From IMG/VR virus record IMGVR_UViG_3300034062_002027: DNA of 64,000 nucleotides; one strand, given 5' to 3'. The stretch's first letter is position 1, and every line of letters begins with the position of its first letter. Positions 2,867 through 20,089 of the stretch are shown one piece after another. The position numbers and the translations under genes are program-made. The stretch is from a virus. Below the pieces are notes generated by a model that ran no database searches, was not told where the DNA came from, and saw only the letters and a program-made list of their open reading frames with translations.

Positions 2867-5368
2867 TTAGTTCTCCGGCGATTTAGCAGCCGGTCTGTTT
2901 AAACGCTCCATCAGCTTAGCCTGCATCTTGGCGGATGCTTCCTGTTGCTTTTGGCTCATCTTTTGTTCAAACTCCTGCTGACGCTGAGCCATCTCTTGCT
3001 CGTGCAGTTGTCTGTCCATGATCATTTCTTGCTGCATTTTTGCTGCGGCAACCTCCGGGTTCTCGCCCTGACGGTTTGCGGCCTCTTGGGCTTTGAGCTG
3101 AAGTTCTTGCTGGCGGACAGCCAAGTCGCCCTGAACCTTTTGCTCTTTGATTGAGGCGTCTTTCATCTTGATCTGCAGCTCTTGTTGCTGCATTTGGACC
3201 AGTGGGTCTTGGGCTTGTTGCTGGGCTTGCTGCTGAGCAGCCTGACCTTTGCTCTGAGCTAGAACCTGCTGGGATGCTTGAGCAACCAGACGCGACAACT
3301 GAACCTCAACATCCTCTGGCAGGTCTTCATCGGGCTTGGGCATGGGCACGCCCAACTGCTCTTCGACCTTCTTGCGGTAGGCAAATGCCAAGTGCTCTGA
3401 GATGTGGGCCATGATTTCGGCCTGCATCTTTTGCGCTTGTGGGTTCTGACCAATCTGCGCGGCCATCAGGGGGTCTTGCATCAAAGCCATGTGGACTGCG
3501 ATGTGTGCGTCATGGTCTTGGTAGATGAACGCCTTGGTGGGCTTTCCGTTCAGAAATGCCATGTTCTCGCTGACTGGGTCGCGTGGCTTCATGTCATCAT
3601 CAATTGGAACCAGCTTGTCTGCGTTCTTGATTCCCAAGACCTCGATCATCTGACGGTGCAACTGCGGTAGGTCATAGATTTGAGGAGCCTGCGCGGCCAA
3701 CTGAATCACAGCTTGGTACTGCATGATCCGCTGGGCCATTGTGGAGCTGTTTGGATCACTGACCGGGATAACCTCGACCATGTCGTAGTCTTCCCGCTTA
3801 GCCATGCGGTCACCGCCTTGGGGCTCGTACTCGTATTCGCTTGGGGTGTTGTCGCGGATGATTTCCTTGAGCAGTTTAAATTCCTGCTTCATGGCGTAGT
3901 GGACCCGGGCTTGAACTGCGCTCATGGTTTTGAGTTGACGCTCCAGCAACGCCAGAGTTGTGCCGACAGGAGAGTTGGCACTCATGTCGCTGATGTTCAT
4001 ATCAGCGATGGAGCCCAGACGGCGGCCCTCTTCTGTGATGCGGTCAAGCAGAACAGCCAGAACTTGTGACGGCTCCTTGTATGGCAGGGGCATGATGTTG
4101 TCACGCACTGTGCCACCGGGCACGTCCACATCTCGCCATTCTCCGGGAGCGATTGGGGTGTCATCTCCTTTAATCCGCAGACCACGCGACTTCAAGCCAC
4201 CGGGCAGGTTGGACAGAGTTCCTGCGTCCACCAACTGACGGATCAGGGATGTACCCGCACGGGCATAGCCGCCGATCAGGTGGATGTAGCCGAAACCATA
4301 AGCGCCAAAACCGGGTACGTAGTCATACTGAACGAAATGCTGGCGCTTGATTTTTTTCTTGTCGGTCTCGTTCCAGTTACGGTAGACCGACAGAACCTTG
4401 CTGGTTCCCTTGTCGATGGTAACGATGTAAGGAAGAGCAATGCCATCCTTGTCCTCGTACCCGGGCATGTCGTAGTCCACTTGAATCTCAAGGAACTGAT
4501 AACGCTCGTCTTCGGTGACGGAGTAGCCCTGCTCTTCGGCTTTCTTTTTCTCCACATCGTTGTGGATCATGACGGGCTCACCCAGCTCAACATCACGGTA
4601 GAAGCCTGCGACCTGAAGCTTCTTGACATCGTTCTTTGTCTTGCGCATCACATGGGTAACGCGCTCGGCAGAGCGAGCACCCGATGAGCCGTAGGGGATG
4701 ACGATGTCTTCGGCGGGGCAGAAGATGGCTACCTGACGGCCAAGGCCGGGATCGAAGTAAACCTTCTTGAAGGCGGAGCCTGCCAGACCCAAGTTGAACA
4801 GCATGCGCTCATGCTCCGGGCGGTATTCAGGCATGCCGTCAACCAACTGGAAGTTCATGTCGGTGCGGACTCGCTCGGCTGCGTCTTCTTTCAATTTGTC
4901 GATTGCGCCAATGATCTGCGTTTTGACGGGGCCTTGAGCGGGGAAGGTCTCAATGATGGTCTCGGACTGGAAGCGGACTGCGGCTTCTGTCAGGAGGGTG
5001 GAGAAGACGCCACAGGCCCCCGTCCAAGGCTCGGTGCGCTCCTCATACTTCATGCCAAGGACCTCGAGCCCTCGCACATACATCTCTACCCATTCTTTAC
5101 GAGATGAGATGTCAGATTCCACTTCTCCTACCAAGTCAGAGCCAAGCTTTTCAAGCTCACCCTCATCCATAAACTCTGCCAAGTTGGCCTCGAACGACTC
5201 CTCTTCTTCTGGCATAAGGTCGATTGCCATGCCGTCGATGCCGATGATTACATCGTCGGGGTTCTCGATGATGATCTCCACTGCGGGGGTGTCATCTTGA
5301 ATCATGTCTGAGAAATCAATCCCCTCAGGGGCCGGGGAGAGAGACGAAACCATGCTGCTTGTTGCCAT
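2867..5368 (-). CDS. portal protein
   Basis: 833 aa with an AAGGA SD, directly downstream of terL. The size and acidic N-terminus are typical of portals. The last ~140 aa form a Q/E/K-rich coiled coil (QQQAQQQAQ...), reminiscent of a P22-type portal barrel. Confidence 0.8.
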   Translation of the reverse strand: MATSSMVSSLSPAPEGIDFSDMIQDDTPAVEIIIENPDDVIIGIDGMAIDLMPEEEESFEANLAEFMDEGELEKLGSDLVGEVESDISSRKEWVEMYVRGLEVLGMKYEERTEPWTGACGVFSTLLTEAAVRFQSETIIETFPAQGPVKTQIIGAIDKLKEDAAERVRTDMNFQLVDGMPEYRPEHERMLFNLGLAGSAFKKVYFDPGLGRQVAIFCPAEDIVIPYGSSGARSAERVTHVMRKTKNDVKKLQVAGFYRDVELGEPVMIHNDVEKKKAEEQGYSVTEDERYQFLEIQVDYDMPGYEDKDGIALPYIVTIDKGTSKVLSVYRNWNETDKKKIKRQHFVQYDYVPGFGAYGFGYIHLIGGYARAGTSLIRQLVDAGTLSNLPGGLKSRGLRIKGDDTPIAPGEWRDVDVPGGTVRDNIMPLPYKEPSQVLAVLLDRITEEGRRLGSIADMNISDMSANSPVGTTLALLERQLKTMSAVQARVHYAMKQEFKLLKEIIRDNTPSEYEYEPQGGDRMAKREDYDMVEVIPVSDPNSSTMAQRIMQYQAVIQLAAQAPQIYDLPQLHRQMIEVLGIKNADKLVPIDDDMKPRDPVSENMAFLNGKPTKAFIYQDHDAHIAVHMALMQDPLMAAQIGQNPQAQKMQAEIMAHISEHLAFAYRKKVEEQLGVPMPKPDEDLPEDVEVQLSRLVAQASQQVLAQSKGQAAQQQAQQQAQDPLVQMQQQELQIKMKDASIKEQKVQGDLAVRQQELQLKAQEAANRQGENPEVAAAKMQQEMIMDRQLHEQEMAQRQQEFEQKMSQKQQEASAKMQAKLMERLNRPAAKSPEN

Positions 5369-5376
5369 GACGATCC

Positions 5377-6870
5377 TTAATAGAAGGCGGTTTTGCGCCG
5401 GAAATAACGCTGCTCTTCGGGCTCATCAGATTCAATCTGAATGAATCCACCTCTTCTAAATCGAAGCAAGGCTTGGCTTGTTGAGTCCACAAGGTCGTCG
5501 TTTTCGCCGTTTGGGAACGCGGCCAACTCCTCCATCAACTCATCTGCCCATCGGGTTTCTGGACACCAAACAACTCCGGAAGCGAAAAGGTCTGAGATAG
5601 CGTTTACACGCGCAATCTTATCGCTTCCTTTGCCCGGTGTGTACTCCTCAAGCAAGATTCCTGTCTGCCGAAGCTCATAGATCAGCGGAGCGCCTGCCGC
5701 TTTCTTCTCCACAATCAGGGTATCTGGCTCCCATTCCTTGTACATCTCAAAAGCTTTTTGTTTAAGCTCAGGAAACTCCATGCGAGCTTTAAACGCATCC
5801 AGACAGATGATGTTGGTCTTCAGATTGCCCAAGCTGTCGGGGTGCTCGAAGATTCCCCACGTTGTGCAGGCTGAATAGTCTGCCCTGTTGGACTTTTCAA
5901 AGGCGGTATCCCAGCTTTGGATGATGTAATCGCACTGCGGAGCGGTGTCCGACTCCCAAATGCGCCACTGATCACGCTTAATGATCGCGCCTTCTTCGGA
6001 TGTGGGGTTCTGTTGGTACTGCGCTTCCCATTTGGCGACAGGAATCTCAGCCTTGATGGCTTCAAGTTCCGTTTTCTTCCAAAATCCGGGCCACAAAGGG
6101 GTTCCTGAGGGCAAAATCGCAGGAAACTCTATAACTTCCCAGTCATCCACGCCATCTTTTGAGGCATTTTTAAGAATCTGCCCAGTCAAATCTCTCTTTG
6201 ACCAGCGCGTCATCACGATGATGATCGCTCCCCCGGGCTGTAAACGCTGACGAGGGCCGGATGTGTACCACTCATACACGTTGTCATACACAGCGGGGTT
6301 GCCTTGCTTGGCCTCCTGCTCCGAATGCGGGTCATCAATGATCAGAAGGTCGGCTCCCTTACCCGTGACGGCTCCGCCGACACCAATAGCGAAGTAGTCG
6401 CCGCCTGCGTGGGTGTTCCAGCGACCTGCTGCCTTTGAATCAGAGGACAGTTTGGTGTCAAACACCCGGGAGAAGGCCTCAGAGGAGACCAAGTTCCTCA
6501 CCTTCCGGCCAAAGCCTACGGCAAGTTCTGCGGTGTGGGCAGTCTGGATGATCTTTTTCTCCGGGAATCTGCCCAAGAACCACGCAGGCAGGAGGTAGGA
6601 GGCAAACTCAGACTTGGTGTGCCGAGGAGGCATGTTGATGATGAGCCTCTTGAGTTGCCCCTTGGCAACTCTCTCAAAAGCATTCGCCATGATCTGGTGG
6701 TGCTTCCCAGAGATAAACCCCGGCCACATGTGGGAGGCGTAATAAATGAAGGACTCTTGGCACTTCTCCACTCTGTCGTACTCAAGAAGCATCATGATCT
6801 TGGCACGCTCCGCCTCATCCACAAGAGGAATCAATGCCCGGTAATCCTCCACCTCCTTACGGCTCATCAT
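5377..6870 (-). CDS. terL: terminase large subunit
   Basis: 497 aa. A Walker-A-like segment (NMPPRHTKSE) and a DLLIIDD Walker B are followed by a C-terminal RNaseH-like nuclease pattern (WDTAF...D.S). This is the typical terL layout, next to the portal gene. Confidence 0.9.
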   Translation of the reverse strand: MMSRKEVEDYRALIPLVDEAERAKIMMLLEYDRVEKCQESFIYYASHMWPGFISGKHHQIMANAFERVAKGQLKRLIINMPPRHTKSEFASYLLPAWFLGRFPEKKIIQTAHTAELAVGFGRKVRNLVSSEAFSRVFDTKLSSDSKAAGRWNTHAGGDYFAIGVGGAVTGKGADLLIIDDPHSEQEAKQGNPAVYDNVYEWYTSGPRQRLQPGGAIIIVMTRWSKRDLTGQILKNASKDGVDDWEVIEFPAILPSGTPLWPGFWKKTELEAIKAEIPVAKWEAQYQQNPTSEEGAIIKRDQWRIWESDTAPQCDYIIQSWDTAFEKSNRADYSACTTWGIFEHPDSLGNLKTNIICLDAFKARMEFPELKQKAFEMYKEWEPDTLIVEKKAAGAPLIYELRQTGILLEEYTPGKGSDKIARVNAISDLFASGVVWCPETRWADELMEELAAFPNGENDDLVDSTSQALLRFRRGGFIQIESDEPEEQRYFRRKTAFY

Positions 6871-7097: not shown

Positions 7098-7136
7098 AGC
7101 CACCTCGTGTAAACAGCGGTAGTTTAAACGCAAAAC

Positions 7137-15879: not shown

Positions 15880-17574
15880 TCAGAAATTGTCCAGATTCTC
15901 CGAGTACGTCCCTGCGGTCTTGTTGAAGATCAGGGTTGTCTCGCCTTGAGTGCCTACCCAGCGGTAGCGACTCTTCCAGACTGCCAACTCCGTGTAGGTG
16001 TCCTTGCGGTGTATCGTAATGCCGCAGTCTGTCTTCGCCCACCATGCCATCGACCCACTGATTGACATCCCGTCTGGACGGGGTTGCTCAACACCAGAGC
16101 GGTTGATCTTGCTTGGATGGGCGACAAACCATGTGTGAACGTCATGTGCCATGCAGAACTTCTTGACCCGTGTCAGCATATCGCTGATGGCATTGGTCTC
16201 GGTCTTGTCCTTGCCTTCCATCTCAATGTAGTTGTACGGGTCAATCACCAGACCCCTCACCCCCATTCTCTTGACCGCCGCCTTGGCCCTTGTGAGGATT
16301 GAGTCCAAGGTGCTGGGCTCTTCGCCGTTGGTGTCGATGAAAAGGAAGTGGTCATTCACCCAGTTAAACGCATCCTTCTTCACCTGATCGGACATCCTGT
16401 CCCGGCCCTCATAGAACGATTGGTGGCTGTACAACTCCATCAGGCGGGTGATGTGGACTTCGGGTTGATTCTCAAAGGAGCAGATCGCAAACTTCCAATC
16501 GGATGATCTTGCGAGGTTGACCATCAACTGATCAACAAAGTTGGACTTGCCTGATGACGGGTAACCTGTGACCACCGTCAACTGCCCCGGCGCTACGGTG
16601 TAAATGTTGTCCACCGATGGGTAGCCAGTGCTGAACCCCTTGCCCGTACCCTTGTTGTACAGGTCGTTGATCTTGTCAAAAAATGTTGATGCTTCTGAAA
16701 TGCCGTTGATGGGATAGGCTTCTGCGCCTTCGATGATTTTGTTTAAACGTTCCTTCGGGCCGTCGTCAGCCGTCGGGTCGTCGTCCATCCATGCTTCGTT
16801 TAAATCCTTCCATGCAAACTTGGCGAGTCGGCATTTCTCTTTTCCGATGCGTCTTGCCAGTTCCTCTGCAAGAGCCTGTCCCGGCCCGTCCTGATCGGTG
16901 GCGAGGACAACGTAGGGGGCGGCATCGATGATCTCTCTGGCGTTCCACACAAAGGCAAACTTCTTGTCTTCGGTCGGCAGCACTTTGCCATCTGCGACCT
17001 TGACGGGAGCGCCGCCCGGAACACTGACCACATTGTTTAAACCTGCTTCGATGGCGGTCAAACAATCCATCTCTCCTTCGACAATGATGATCGGTTCACC
17101 CTTGACCACCTGATCGATCCCAAAGAAATCGTGGGCTCCACCTGCGTCCTGTGTGAAGTCCTTCGCTTCGATACTTCGGTACTTTGCCGAGACGAGCGCC
17201 CCGCCTCTGTAATAGGGGAACCCAACTGCCTGTGTGGGTTTGCTGAGACGGGAGAAAAACTTTTCTGCTGAGAACAACCGCATCCTGTCTGCGGTTTCTT
17301 TTGAGATGCCCCGAGACTTGAGCCAGTCGTAGTGGGGAGGTGATAGTTTGTTGCTGGTTATCGTTGGTGACGGGACGGCGGTCAATTTAAACTCCTTGGG
17401 TTGCACCGATCCTGATGCAGAGCAGTGATGGCAGTGGTAGACAACGGCCCCGTCCGTCTTGCGGGTCAGCGTCATGTCTTTGATGTTTTGTTTTCTGCGG
17501 TCTGGAGAACAGAACGGGCAGATCACTCGGGTTGTTTCGTTGAAGTACGTCTCTTGGACGAGGGCTTCAATCAT
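15880..17574 (-). CDS. bifunctional primase-helicase (T7 gp4-like)
   Basis: 564 aa. It has an N-terminal zinc finger (CPFCSPD...CHHCSASG), a TOPRIM segment (IIIVEGEMDCLTAIEAG) and a DnaB/RecA-type Walker A (GYPSSGKSNF). Confidence 0.85.
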   Translation of the reverse strand: MIEALVQETYFNETTRVICPFCSPDRRKQNIKDMTLTRKTDGAVVYHCHHCSASGSVQPKEFKLTAVPSPTITSNKLSPPHYDWLKSRGISKETADRMRLFSAEKFFSRLSKPTQAVGFPYYRGGALVSAKYRSIEAKDFTQDAGGAHDFFGIDQVVKGEPIIIVEGEMDCLTAIEAGLNNVVSVPGGAPVKVADGKVLPTEDKKFAFVWNAREIIDAAPYVVLATDQDGPGQALAEELARRIGKEKCRLAKFAWKDLNEAWMDDDPTADDGPKERLNKIIEGAEAYPINGISEASTFFDKINDLYNKGTGKGFSTGYPSVDNIYTVAPGQLTVVTGYPSSGKSNFVDQLMVNLARSSDWKFAICSFENQPEVHITRLMELYSHQSFYEGRDRMSDQVKKDAFNWVNDHFLFIDTNGEEPSTLDSILTRAKAAVKRMGVRGLVIDPYNYIEMEGKDKTETNAISDMLTRVKKFCMAHDVHTWFVAHPSKINRSGVEQPRPDGMSISGSMAWWAKTDCGITIHRKDTYTELAVWKSRYRWVGTQGETTLIFNKTAGTYSENLDNF

Positions 17575-18749: not shown

Positions 18750-18983
18750 TTAAGTTGAAGTGCCTTGCGGCTCTTGGTGTGATTGGTTGATCTGCGTCAC
18801 CTTTTTTTGTATCTCCCTGTAGATTTCTTTGAACCTCTTCTCGTCTATCTGCCAGTGTCTGTTCGCCGCCAAGATGTCCGATGCCTCCCTCTTGGTCAGC
18901 CATATCAATGGCTTCCTCTTCCTGTATTCGAGGTGATCCCGTAACTCTTGCGTGACCGCCTTGTAGTATTCCTCAGAGGGCAT
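18750..18983 (-). CDS. hypothetical protein
   Basis: I chose the internal ATG at 18983 (AAGGA SD). 77 aa, basic. Confidence 0.55.
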   Translation of the reverse strand: MPSEEYYKAVTQELRDHLEYRKRKPLIWLTKREASDILAANRHWQIDEKRFKEIYREIQKKVTQINQSHQEPQGTST

Positions 18984-19257
18984 TTCTATCCTTGATACGC
19001 CGGATGGATAATTTCCACCCAAAGACCCCCTACCCCACGGGATGTGAGGCGAGGGGAAGGTTCCACCCCTGCAAAGCAGGATCATCATGTTACGGATTGT
19101 CCGTATACCCTCGGCTTGATGATGCGACCAGCCGCACGGATTATTCGGGAACTGCCCCCTAGACCAAGGTCATACCGTGTCGCGGTTTTCTTCCGAGCGG
19201 CCCCACTTGCGGCCCCTGCTGTCGTGCGGAGTACGGAAGGCGTGGAAAGTACAGACG

Positions 19258-19354
19258 AAAAAAAGCCGCTTGCAACTGCGATCCCGGTAGCAACCTTGCC
19301 TAATACCTCTCAACAGAGCATTAGGAAAGGCGGAATCGCATGTGTAAGCGGCCT
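19258..19354 (-). terminator. long imperfect hairpin followed by U7 (candidate terminator or 3' structured RNA domain)
   Basis: On the minus strand, AGGCCGCTTACACATGCGATTCC pairs (18 of 23) with GGGATCGCAGTTGCAAGCGGCTT around an inner hairpin CCTAATGCTCT-GTTG-AGAGGTATTAGG. TTTTTTT follows. Confidence 0.4.
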
Positions 19355-19458
19355 CAATTTTTCGTTACTTGCTACGGCAACAGCTTCACTGTATCACAGC
19401 TTTTTGGAACTTGCAATAAAAGATTGCGAACGTTCTTAGGGGTTTACCCTATACATGT

Positions 19459-19533
19459 TGGTTGCGGAGGACGGACTCGCACCGTCGATCTTCTGGTTAT
19501 GAGCCAGACGGATTACTTCTTTCCCACCCCGCA
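19459..19533 (-). tRNA. tRNA-Met-like gene (anticodon CAT) with encoded CCA and atypical D/T loops
   Basis: Hand-folded cloverleaf. The acceptor stem is 7 bp (TGCGGGG/CTCCGCA), with U8. The anticodon arm is TCTGG-CTCATAA-CCAGA and the T arm is GACGG-TGCGAGT-CCGTC. The discriminator is A, followed by CCA. The D stem is only 3 bp, and G19 and U55 are replaced. Confidence 0.55.
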
Positions 19534-19538
19534 GTTAA

Positions 19539-19567
19539 AGTTTAAACGATGGTGGCTCAGCCTGCAA
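19539..19567 (-). promoter_or_regulatory. candidate sigma70 promoter for the tRNA-like gene
   Basis: On the minus strand: TTGCAG, 17 nt, TAAACT, 5 nt, then the tRNA 5' end. The -10 overlaps a GTTTAAAC octamer. Confidence 0.4.
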
Positions 19568-19654
19568 GCTCATCTGGTGAGCCTGCGTGCAAGCCTGCGT
19601 GCCTTTCGTGTAAACTGCACTGGCGGGAACCTCCCCCCGCAGTTGCTTCTCCTT

Positions 19655-20089
19655 TTAGCCCCGGCCCTTGCGCTGGGGCTTCTTTTTTGGGGCAACCTCT
19701 TCTATCTTCTCGATCATGATCTCTGCCCGAGGGTTCTCAGGATCAAGGCCCCAGTACGCATGGCGCTCTTTGACCTGACGGTCGTTCTCATATATCAGTC
19801 CCTGCATCAGGTCGAGGATCAGCGTCTCGTCCAAGTCAGGTCTGCGGCTTGCGTAATAGATATGCAGCGTCACCCGAAGGTCGCCGGTCATAAGGCAGGC
19901 GAGCGGCCTGCATTGCTGTTTAAACACATCTGAGTAGTTGAGCGCCTTTTCGGACTTGATGAGCCGGGACACCCCGCCGAAACGTACCATCCTGCGACTG
20001 TTGCTTTTTGATGCTGGCTCACCAAAAATAATTTGCACTAGGGCTTGCAATTCTGTTGTATCATCACTATTATTGAGTTTCTCAGTCAT
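19655..20089 (-). CDS. rusA: RusA-family Holliday junction resolvase
   Basis: 144 aa. It contains GEPASKSNSRR...SEKALNY...RPDLDETLILDLMQGLIYENDRQV, the RusA catalytic Asp pattern. Confidence 0.75.
   Translation of the reverse strand: MTEKLNNSDDTTELQALVQIIFGEPASKSNSRRMVRFGGVSRLIKSEKALNYSDVFKQQCRPLACLMTGDLRVTLHIYYASRRPDLDETLILDLMQGLIYENDRQVKERHAYWGLDPENPRAEIMIEKIEEVAPKKKPQRKGRG

Follow-up and report, generated by a model that had tools for sequence, protein, structure and literature searches.

Does a tRNA-like sequence in a phage genome form one RNA together with the structured region that follows it, or do two genes lie side by side? The question is raised by the minus strand between positions 19258 and 19567 of the IMG/VR virus record IMGVR_UViG_3300034062_002027. 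The analysed stretch of 64,000 nucleotides (nt), here called the window, is the near-whole genome of an uncultured tailed phage. A preliminary description of its sequence had seen a promoter-equipped tRNA-Met-like gene with a disrupted elbow and a structured 3′ extension of about 200 nt. We hold it probable, without calling it settled, that this region contains two adjacent and separable RNA genes, an initiator-type tRNA and a small RNA with an attenuator-like role. The tRNA and the structured region behind it therefore deserve annotation as two genes. Unless stated otherwise the features of this region described below lie on the minus strand, and related viral loci are designated by L numbers.

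A tRNA gene of probable initiator type

ARAGORN reports a single tRNA in the window, a tRNA-Met(cat) at 19459-19533 with the anticodon at 19501-19499. Rfam agrees, since the hit to the family RF00005 reaches 59.2 bits, where the gathering score is 29, and covers the full model (1-71); comparison with a family of related tRNAs, described below, also bears on the assignment. The cloverleaf of 75 nt which had been folded by hand is found again in the sequence with its acceptor stem of seven base pairs (bp), including U1-A72 and G6-U67, with U8, the CUCAUAA anticodon loop, the 5-bp T stem, A73 and the encoded CCA. The D stem has indeed only three pairs, to which an A13/A22 mismatch has to be added. 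Of the possibilities that the preliminary description had offered, a phage-borne functional tRNA is supported, and we consider the gene as probably a functional tRNA(CAU).

The anticodon CAU, A73 and the pairs G2:C71/C3:G70 are determinants for the methionyl-tRNA synthetase MetRS and for the formyltransferase in bacterial initiator tRNA. Further hallmarks of bacterial initiators are C1xA72 in Escherichia coli and three G:C pairs at 29:41, 30:40 and 31:39, and elongator tRNAs have the reverse of the initiator purine 11:pyrimidine 24. The window tRNA carries CAU, A73, G2:C71, C3:G70 and G11:C24. With the E. coli initiator tRNA-fMet (metZWV/metY type) it has in common CAU, G2:C71, C3:G70, G4:C69, A73, R11:Y24, G30:C40 and G31:C39, and its acceptor stem [U]GCGGGG/CUCCGCA resembles the CGCGGGG/CCCCGCA of tRNA-fMet. 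Unlike tRNA-fMet it has U1-A72 instead of a mismatch, U:A at 29:41, a 7-nt D-loop and A18/G55 in place of G18/U55. What is expected of an initiator at 1:72 is that no strong Watson-Crick pair is formed, and U1-A72 is able to form a weak pair. On balance we think that the window encodes a working initiator-type tRNA(CAU). It would presumably be aminoacylated and formylated, and in infection it would probably supplement or replace the initiator tRNA of the host.

The A18/G55 elbow

The preliminary description had noted U instead of G19 and G instead of U55, and had taken the elbow, that is, the contacts between D-loop and T-loop, to be broken. The second substitution is present: the T-loop UGCGAGU has G55 (19480), where canonical tRNAs have a U that is modified to pseudouridine. 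The first is a numbering artefact which arises when the short loop is counted without gaps. In the family alignment the 7-nt D-loop AGAAGUA reads A14 G15 A16 A18 G19 U20 A21. Thus, G19 is present (19516), and the base that is replaced is the G18 of canonical tRNAs, which is an A here (19517). The elbow pair between G19 and C56 (19479) is intact. The contact of G18 with U or pseudouridine at position 55, treated as universal in tRNAs, is replaced by A18 and G55, which co-vary across the family. A disrupted elbow is therefore not borne out.

G55 is shared by L068, L120, L017 and L020. We searched with a degenerate pattern which extends from the anticodon arm to the T arm, has G at position 55 and itself fixes the pairs 30:40 and 31:39. 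It matches 90 viral stretches in IMG/VR, and a version with U55 matches at least 117. The search of about 186,000 prokaryotic species, each represented by one genome, covered the G55 pattern alone and gave only 8 contigs, which are of Bacteroidales type except for one Saccharibacteria metagenome-assembled genome. Of the 53 unique sequences with G55, 48 have a D-loop that ends with AG[U/A/C]A. The same collection provided 92 unique U55 controls, and almost all of these have GG at that place. A18 thus goes with G55 and GG with U55. This couples the change of G18 to A with that of U55 to G, and the elbow appears to be rewired rather than broken; the sequences of the family are related, so that these counts do not represent independent events.

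The family also has the features of initiator tRNAs. G2:C71 together with C3:G70 is found in 52 of the 53 sequences, R11:Y24 in 50, and A73 as well as the encoded CCA in 46 each; CGCGGGG/CCCCGCA is the usual acceptor stem. At position 1:72, 32 sequences have C:A and most of the others C:C, U:U, U:A or A:U, with G:C in none of those tallied. Position 29:41 is A:U in 21, U:A in 19, G:C in 10 and C:G in 3. The differences in the stems within the family are compensatory changes. In loci with a G55 CAU tRNA, 618 tRNAs of other isotypes keep TTC, and hence these phages are not simply sloppy with their tRNAs.

Homologous tRNA-Met genes of cultured phages (Mesorhizobium phage vB_MseS-P1, Rhizobium phage RR1-A, Rhodobacter phage RcXuper and a Bohxovirus) show 75-76% identity over the full length; the copy in vB_MseS-P1 is unannotated. 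Their D stem is likewise short and of the GGGA/GAGA type, with a loop of 7-8 nt, but D-loop and T-loop have the canonical GG and UUCGA, respectively. Among cultured phages none exceeds 80% identity to the commonest member of the G55 family, and a literature search on A18/G55 or G55 in phage tRNAs yielded no relevant description. We suggest that A18 and G55 contact each other and stand in for G18 and pseudouridine-55. With G19:C56 kept, the L shape should still form, and such a tRNA would be unable to carry pseudouridine-55 or Gm18. This mostly viral initiator-type family might thus represent a second workable elbow design. It raises questions about the dependence on TruB and TrmH, about enzymes which read the elbow and about tRNA-directed defences of the host. 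The window offers a simple case, as the sole tRNA of a phage of about 64 kb is of the A18/G55 type.

The elbow swap is not confined to initiator tRNAs. In the viral locus L123 (7165 bases) NGC[A/G]A T-loops are combined with AG D-loops in 14 of the 15 tRNA genes, and a Met-Gly-Pro-Tyr array at L055:12840-13180 has G55 in the Met, Pro and Tyr genes.

Promoter and distribution of the tRNA gene

A putative promoter precedes the tRNA, with TTGCAG as -35 element (19562-19567) and, after a spacer of 17 nt, TAAACT as -10 element (19539-19544), which overlaps a copy of the palindrome GTTTAAAC at 19540-19547. The -10 element ends 5 nt ahead of tRNA position 1. Both elements and their spacing are held in the window, L120 and L068, though the sequence of the spacer has diverged in L068, and TTGCAG is absent in the relatives without the tRNA. 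Across the unrelated contexts of the tRNA family no conserved promoter is found at this spacing; in L020, GAGCTTGCAG-18-TATACT lies about 85 nt upstream of the tRNA. The promoter claim of the preliminary description stands insofar as the two elements exist and a weak promoter of the tRNA itself is plausible by conservation; the match to the consensus is poor, as detailed below. The transcript would start at or beside tRNA position 1. Since no terminator is seen between the tRNA and the small RNA, it probably continues to a tract of seven U residues (U7) and shares this terminator with the small RNA.

The tRNA is accessory cargo in a minority of this phage lineage. Among 52 relatives sampled through their primase/helicase only L017 and L020 have a tRNA. 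L068 and L120, which were found through the tRNA and are 86-89% identical in DNA, carry it in the same slot, and these four and the window are the only instances in this slot. Five relatives that are 90-100% complete contain no tRNA anywhere. In the closest relatives without the tRNA the slot is filled by other sequence, including iteron-like repeats.

Upstream of the tRNA (19550-19583) a hairpin GGCUCA...UGAGCC is followed by ACCA, and a hairpin with GCCACCAACAACTTTTAT also precedes many G55 tRNAs elsewhere in phages. About 20 nt of upstream flank may thus have travelled with the tRNA, or the hairpin may be what is left of an upstream tRNA. A direct repeat, two copies of GCACGCAGGCU, also lies upstream of the tRNA, at 19580-19602, and GCACGCAGGCT occurs there twice (19602-19580).

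The small RNA downstream of the tRNA

The 204 nt 3′ of the tRNA form a structured region which ends in the U7 tract at 19264-19258, as the preliminary description had proposed: the fold has a z value of -4.9, and none of 200 shuffled sequences is as stable. Its reading as a 3′ extension of the tRNA or as a domain of a larger noncoding RNA fails, because the region has a near-consensus promoter of its own and is kept in complete relatives without the tRNA, as BLAST and alignment demonstrate. This promoter is sigma70-like and consists of TTGCAA (19411-19416), a 17-nt spacer and the extended -10 element TG-a-TACAGT (19388-19396). Most relatives have TTGACA at the homologous position of the -35 element, and the match rises up to the full consensus. 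More than 24 representatives, some of them from a second phage lineage, conserve the -10 element at a fixed distance from the RNA, in the form TGnTA[C/G]AGT, TGcTTATAAT or TGgTACACT. With the 5′ end deduced from the promoter and the 3′ end placed at U7, the RNA would extend over 19258-19385 and comprise about 125 nt; across the relatives its length is 97-133 nt, and it ends in a hairpin followed by five to eight U residues in all of them.

Just upstream of the -35 element lies GAACGTTC, a candidate operator with 4 copies against 0.95 expected, a number reached by 2 of 100 shuffles.

A covariance model of the RNA (R1), which scores 65.5 bits on the window, gives sense-strand hits in 36 loci of the helicase group and in five further loci of different gene order, which at the DNA level share only the tRNA with the window. 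No hit was obtained in 877 kb of control phage DNA. In total more than 40 loci have the RNA, with or without a tRNA and with one copy per genome; in the four closest cultured phages (DSL-LC04, 023Pt_psg01, HTVC027P and HTVC023P) it was not found at E values up to 1. Around the RNA the loci L107, L126, L096, L060 and L055 share no proteins with the window neighbourhood (none at E <1e-4). Genes of the L107/L126 lineage are arranged as G55 tRNA, small terminase, an open reading frame (ORF) of 102 amino acids, large terminase, RNA, a small ORF and a giant ART-PolyVal protein, and in the L107 lineage the tRNA and the RNA are 2.4 kb apart. The tRNA array of L055 is closed by its own hairpin and U5 terminator ahead of the TTGACA promoter of the RNA. 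L068 combines a tRNA of the window type with a different variant of the RNA. The occurrence in other contexts, the own promoter and the mixed combinations of tRNA and RNA make the unit modular. The supposed 3′ extension is thus an independent unit.

Rfam 15 gives no match on the minus strand besides the tRNA, neither at gathering thresholds over the window nor with E up to 10 over positions 18900-19800. A T-box-like or other riboswitch was considered and rejected, as there is no Rfam match and the core bases are poorly conserved.

The RNA is predicted to start with a 5′ hairpin, H1 (19363-19383; stem CUGUUG/UAACG, 10-nt loop), which forms in all 18 representatives and has the pseudoknot bases in its loop. 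A long basal helix at 19265-19353 follows, with outer arms at 19353-19344/19273-19265 and inner arms at 19341-19331/19286-19277. The apical hairpin CCUAAUGCUCU/AGAGGUAUUAGG (19299-19325) belongs to the variable part, for which most relatives have a CCCC-loop-GGGG hairpin, alone or together with a second one. Judged from co-variation, the loop of H1 pairs with an internal 3′ strand and thereby forms a pseudoknot. Its 5′ strand is CCGUAGCAA (19369-19377), and the 3′ strand UUGCUACCGG (19284-19293) abuts the inner helix.

From 21 unique sequences RNAalifold predicts a basal helix of 18 pairs, 8 of which show double compensatory changes. In an alignment of 31 sequences 96.9% of the cells in this helix are paired, 12 of the 18 pairs have double changes, and the covariation score is 0.565, compared with 0.28 for shuffled and at most 0.17 for slid partners. 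The pseudoknot was tested without an alignment by comparing cognate and non-cognate duplexes; MAFFT and cmalign put its strands in different registers depending on the subgroup. Cognate duplexes have a mean energy of -12.7 kcal/mol versus -7.75 kcal/mol for non-cognate ones. Compensation is seen in 18 distinct variants, and 20,000 permutations gave no equally good result. Among the paired segments conservation is lowest in the pseudoknot strands, with an identity of 0.40-0.51 versus 0.66-0.75 in the outer helix. At the base of the RNA the stem GCCGCUU...AAGCGGC, which covaries, is followed by U7 and is thus a predicted intrinsic terminator.

Possible role of the small RNA

We suggest that the small RNA is most likely a promoter-proximal leader or attenuator. 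The sigma70 RNA polymerase of the host would start at the strong promoter and synthesise the RNA of about 125 nt. Upon folding, the pseudoknot would join the loop of the 5′ hairpin to the long terminal hairpin, and the latter together with U7 would act as intrinsic terminator. Most transcripts would end at U7 as a stable small RNA. A fraction would read through and express the operon downstream, that is, small ORFs and the primase/helicase in the window and the polyvalent giant protein in the other lineage. The RNA is always co-directional with the genes that follow, and a strong promoter and a terminator ahead of a co-directional operon are arranged as one would expect of a promoter-proximal leader or an attenuator. 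In L107 the listed small ORF has its first ATG about 60 nt beyond the U-run; L126 and L060 do not have this ATG. By eye no good promoter is seen in this stretch of L107.

The put RNA of phage HK022 has about 70 nt, folds into two stem-loops with a V shape and a triplex, has neither a built-in terminator nor a pseudoknot to a terminator hairpin and acts in cis on RNA polymerase (PMC9378689). Like putL and putR, the small RNA would be a structured RNA made by the host RNA polymerase right after a phage promoter and ahead of terminators and an operon. Its structure is different: within 97-133 nt a hairpin at the 5′ end is followed by a long terminator hairpin, to which it is joined by a pseudoknot; there is no sequence similarity, and the architecture of a put-type antiterminator is absent. 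The "6S" transcript of lambda PR'-tR' is a promoter-proximal terminated leader, and here too a strong promoter and a short terminated RNA are followed by an operon. The small RNA thus resembles HK022 put and lambda PR'-tR' in position, not in structure. P4 CI and P1/P7 C4 are phage immunity RNAs with co-varying complementary boxes. Complementary segments which co-evolve fast between close relatives are also found here, but both partner strands of the small RNA reside within one RNA of about 125 nt. Rfam presumably includes a C4 family, and the small RNA of the window gave no Rfam match. We know of no Q-like or immunity function of the window phage.

Its compact, pseudoknotted and strongly covarying fold, its consensus host promoter and its occurrence as a single copy per genome in over 40 loci of uncultured aquatic phages make the small RNA a candidate for a new family of regulatory RNAs. 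One could go further and see promoter, RNA and terminator as a new class of self-contained phage transcription gate. The fast-evolving but compensated pseudoknot would then be a specificity determinant comparable to heteroimmunity boxes and would decide between a stop at U7 and entry into the operon, while the slot upstream would be a preferred landing site for tRNA cargo, including tRNAs of the A18/G55 type. We offer this extension as speculation, and its chances appear small to us.

Several points weigh against the reading as initiator-type tRNA and attenuator-like RNA. The U1-A72 of the window tRNA can pair and departs from the strict initiator definition, and three consecutive G:C pairs are not found in the anticodon stem, where G30:C40 and G31:C39 are present but U:A occupies 29:41. 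Hence the tRNA may have a dual role or serve in elongation, and because of these two departures we speak of an initiator-type tRNA and do not claim formylation. The tRNA promoter is weak, matching 7 of 12 consensus positions, which is below the threshold of a scan for consensus promoters, and its conservation is that of three close relatives. Because the alignment of 31 sequences had been fitted to the structure of the model, its counts are biased in favour of the nested pairs, and the relatives compared are linked by common descent. The strong variation of the apical part and of the pseudoknot sequence speaks against a small-molecule aptamer. A simple terminator scan did not call the U7 site, whose stem closes about 70 nt of inner structure; this long structured insert explains the miss. 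Finally, 275 nt of other conserved noncoding sequence lie between U7 and the next ORF in the window lineage; read-through may be unregulated, and the downstream genes may have another promoter.

Alternative explanations

Tested against these findings, a single composite RNA with a tRNA-like 5′ domain and a structured 3′ domain of about 200 nt, serving as a decoy or as a larger noncoding RNA and not as a translating tRNA, seems unlikely. It would agree with the joint primary transcript which is likely because no terminator is seen before U7, and the RNA unit is preceded by tRNA genes in three settings, namely in the window group, in the L017/L020 group, and in L055 together with the L107 lineage. 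The small RNA, however, has its own conserved promoter and persists in complete genomes that lack the tRNA. The same tRNA is joined to a different RNA variant in L068, a terminator precedes the RNA promoter in L055, terminase genes intervene in the L107 lineage, and members of the tRNA family stand in about 90 other contexts where the RNA is missing. The tRNA alone could be a decaying pseudogene or the remnant of a host-derived attachment site, and the changes in its loops would then be damage. Two near-universal bases, G18 and U55, are altered in a tRNA whose D stem has three pairs and an A/A mismatch, and most relatives manage without the gene. Such decay is hard to reconcile with a full-length gene with CCA, a candidate promoter, four intact stems and the Rfam score reported above. 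Moreover, both changes recur jointly in 48 of the 53 distinct sequences, with compensatory changes elsewhere in the stems. The pattern is so rare in cellular genomes, with 8 records among the species searched, that the window tRNA is not a copy of an ordinary host gene. We judge this explanation very unlikely.

Of more weight, though still improbable, is the idea that the RNA of about 125 nt is a free-standing small RNA which acts in trans by binding a protein or another RNA, with the terminator merely ending its gene and other promoters serving the genes downstream. Strong promoter and terminator signals around a compact conserved fold, present once per genome and kept in this form in two different gene neighbourhoods, would suit such an RNA. 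Its most variable paired segment is however internal, namely the pseudoknot, no conserved exposed seed was found, linker and apical parts are poorly conserved, and the RNA always lies just upstream of and co-directional with an operon. These observations favour the leader or attenuator. Transcription-dependent origins exist in phages and plasmids, and the unit could likewise be part of a replication origin at which a short strong transcript activates or primes DNA synthesis. It is located in the replication module between the RusA-like resolvase and the primase/helicase, iteron-like direct repeats occur just upstream in the slot of relatives, the window itself has the two copies of GCACGCAGGCT mentioned above, and the cumulative GC skew is near its minimum at 16-20 kb. 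But the GC skew also follows the direction of transcription, the conserved pseudoknot is not obviously needed by a primer or activator, and in the L107 lineage the RNA follows terminase genes and precedes a virion polyvalent protein rather than replication genes. An origin thus appears unlikely to us, and a promoter-proximal leader or attenuator remains the role that we prefer.

Genomic setting and further features

Both RNA genes belong to an uncultured aquatic podophage of about 64 kb from a lake. Matches to PHROG families identify the portal (2867-5368), the terminase large subunit (5377-6870, minus strand), the primase/helicase (15880-17574) and the RusA-like resolvase (19655-20089). Phage DSL-LC04, phage 023Pt_psg01 and the Pelagibacter phages HTVC027P and HTVC023P have terminases with 55-58% identity to this one. 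All genes that flank the region of the tRNA and the small RNA are on the minus strand. Probable coding sequence ends at 19655 and restarts at 18983, which leaves a noncoding gap of about 670 nt. The two RNA genes are situated in a hypervariable noncoding slot of the replication module.

In the relatives this tRNA slot frequently contains iteron-like direct repeats, for example 2.5 copies of GTGGTTCTGCC, two to three copies of TCCAACAACA or three to four copies of ATGGGGTAT(A)CCCC. Slots with repeats are found at L007:4180-4300, L002:4196-4440 and L001:272-560, where additional copies of GTTTAAAC are present. The repeat-rich slot is possibly an origin or a regulatory hub.

A further conserved noncoding leader (18984-19257) is located between U7 and the next probable gene, which starts with an ATG at 18983. 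It lies outside the small-RNA module, is kept within the helicase group and is replaced by other sequence in other lineages. At 19135-19179, for example, it can form a small three-way junction, CACGG-UAU-GAC(N4)GUC-UA-GGG(GGCAGUU)CCC-GAAUAAU-CCGUG, whose N4 loop differs among the relatives with the stems preserved. Rfam gives no match to this junction or to the leader.

On the plus strand a G+C-rich hairpin of 9 bp followed by TCTTTTTT is found at 19657-19680 within the 3′ end of the RusA-like gene. It has a weak sub-threshold Rfam hit, and no plus-strand gene is evident there. The hairpin would terminate antisense transcription which leaves the noncoding island.

The 8-bp palindrome GTTTAAAC occurs 24 times in the window against 0.78 expected, for example at 19540-19547, 7122-7129 and 63706-63713. 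The 52 relatives contain 512 copies in 534 kb (9.6 per 10 kb), whereas the next commonest palindrome of eight nucleotides has 76 copies and unrelated phage loci have 0.16 copies of GTTTAAAC per 10 kb. As a phage promoter motif it was rejected, since the 24 copies have no extended consensus and are mostly within ORFs. The palindrome might be a site for protein binding, modification or recombination.

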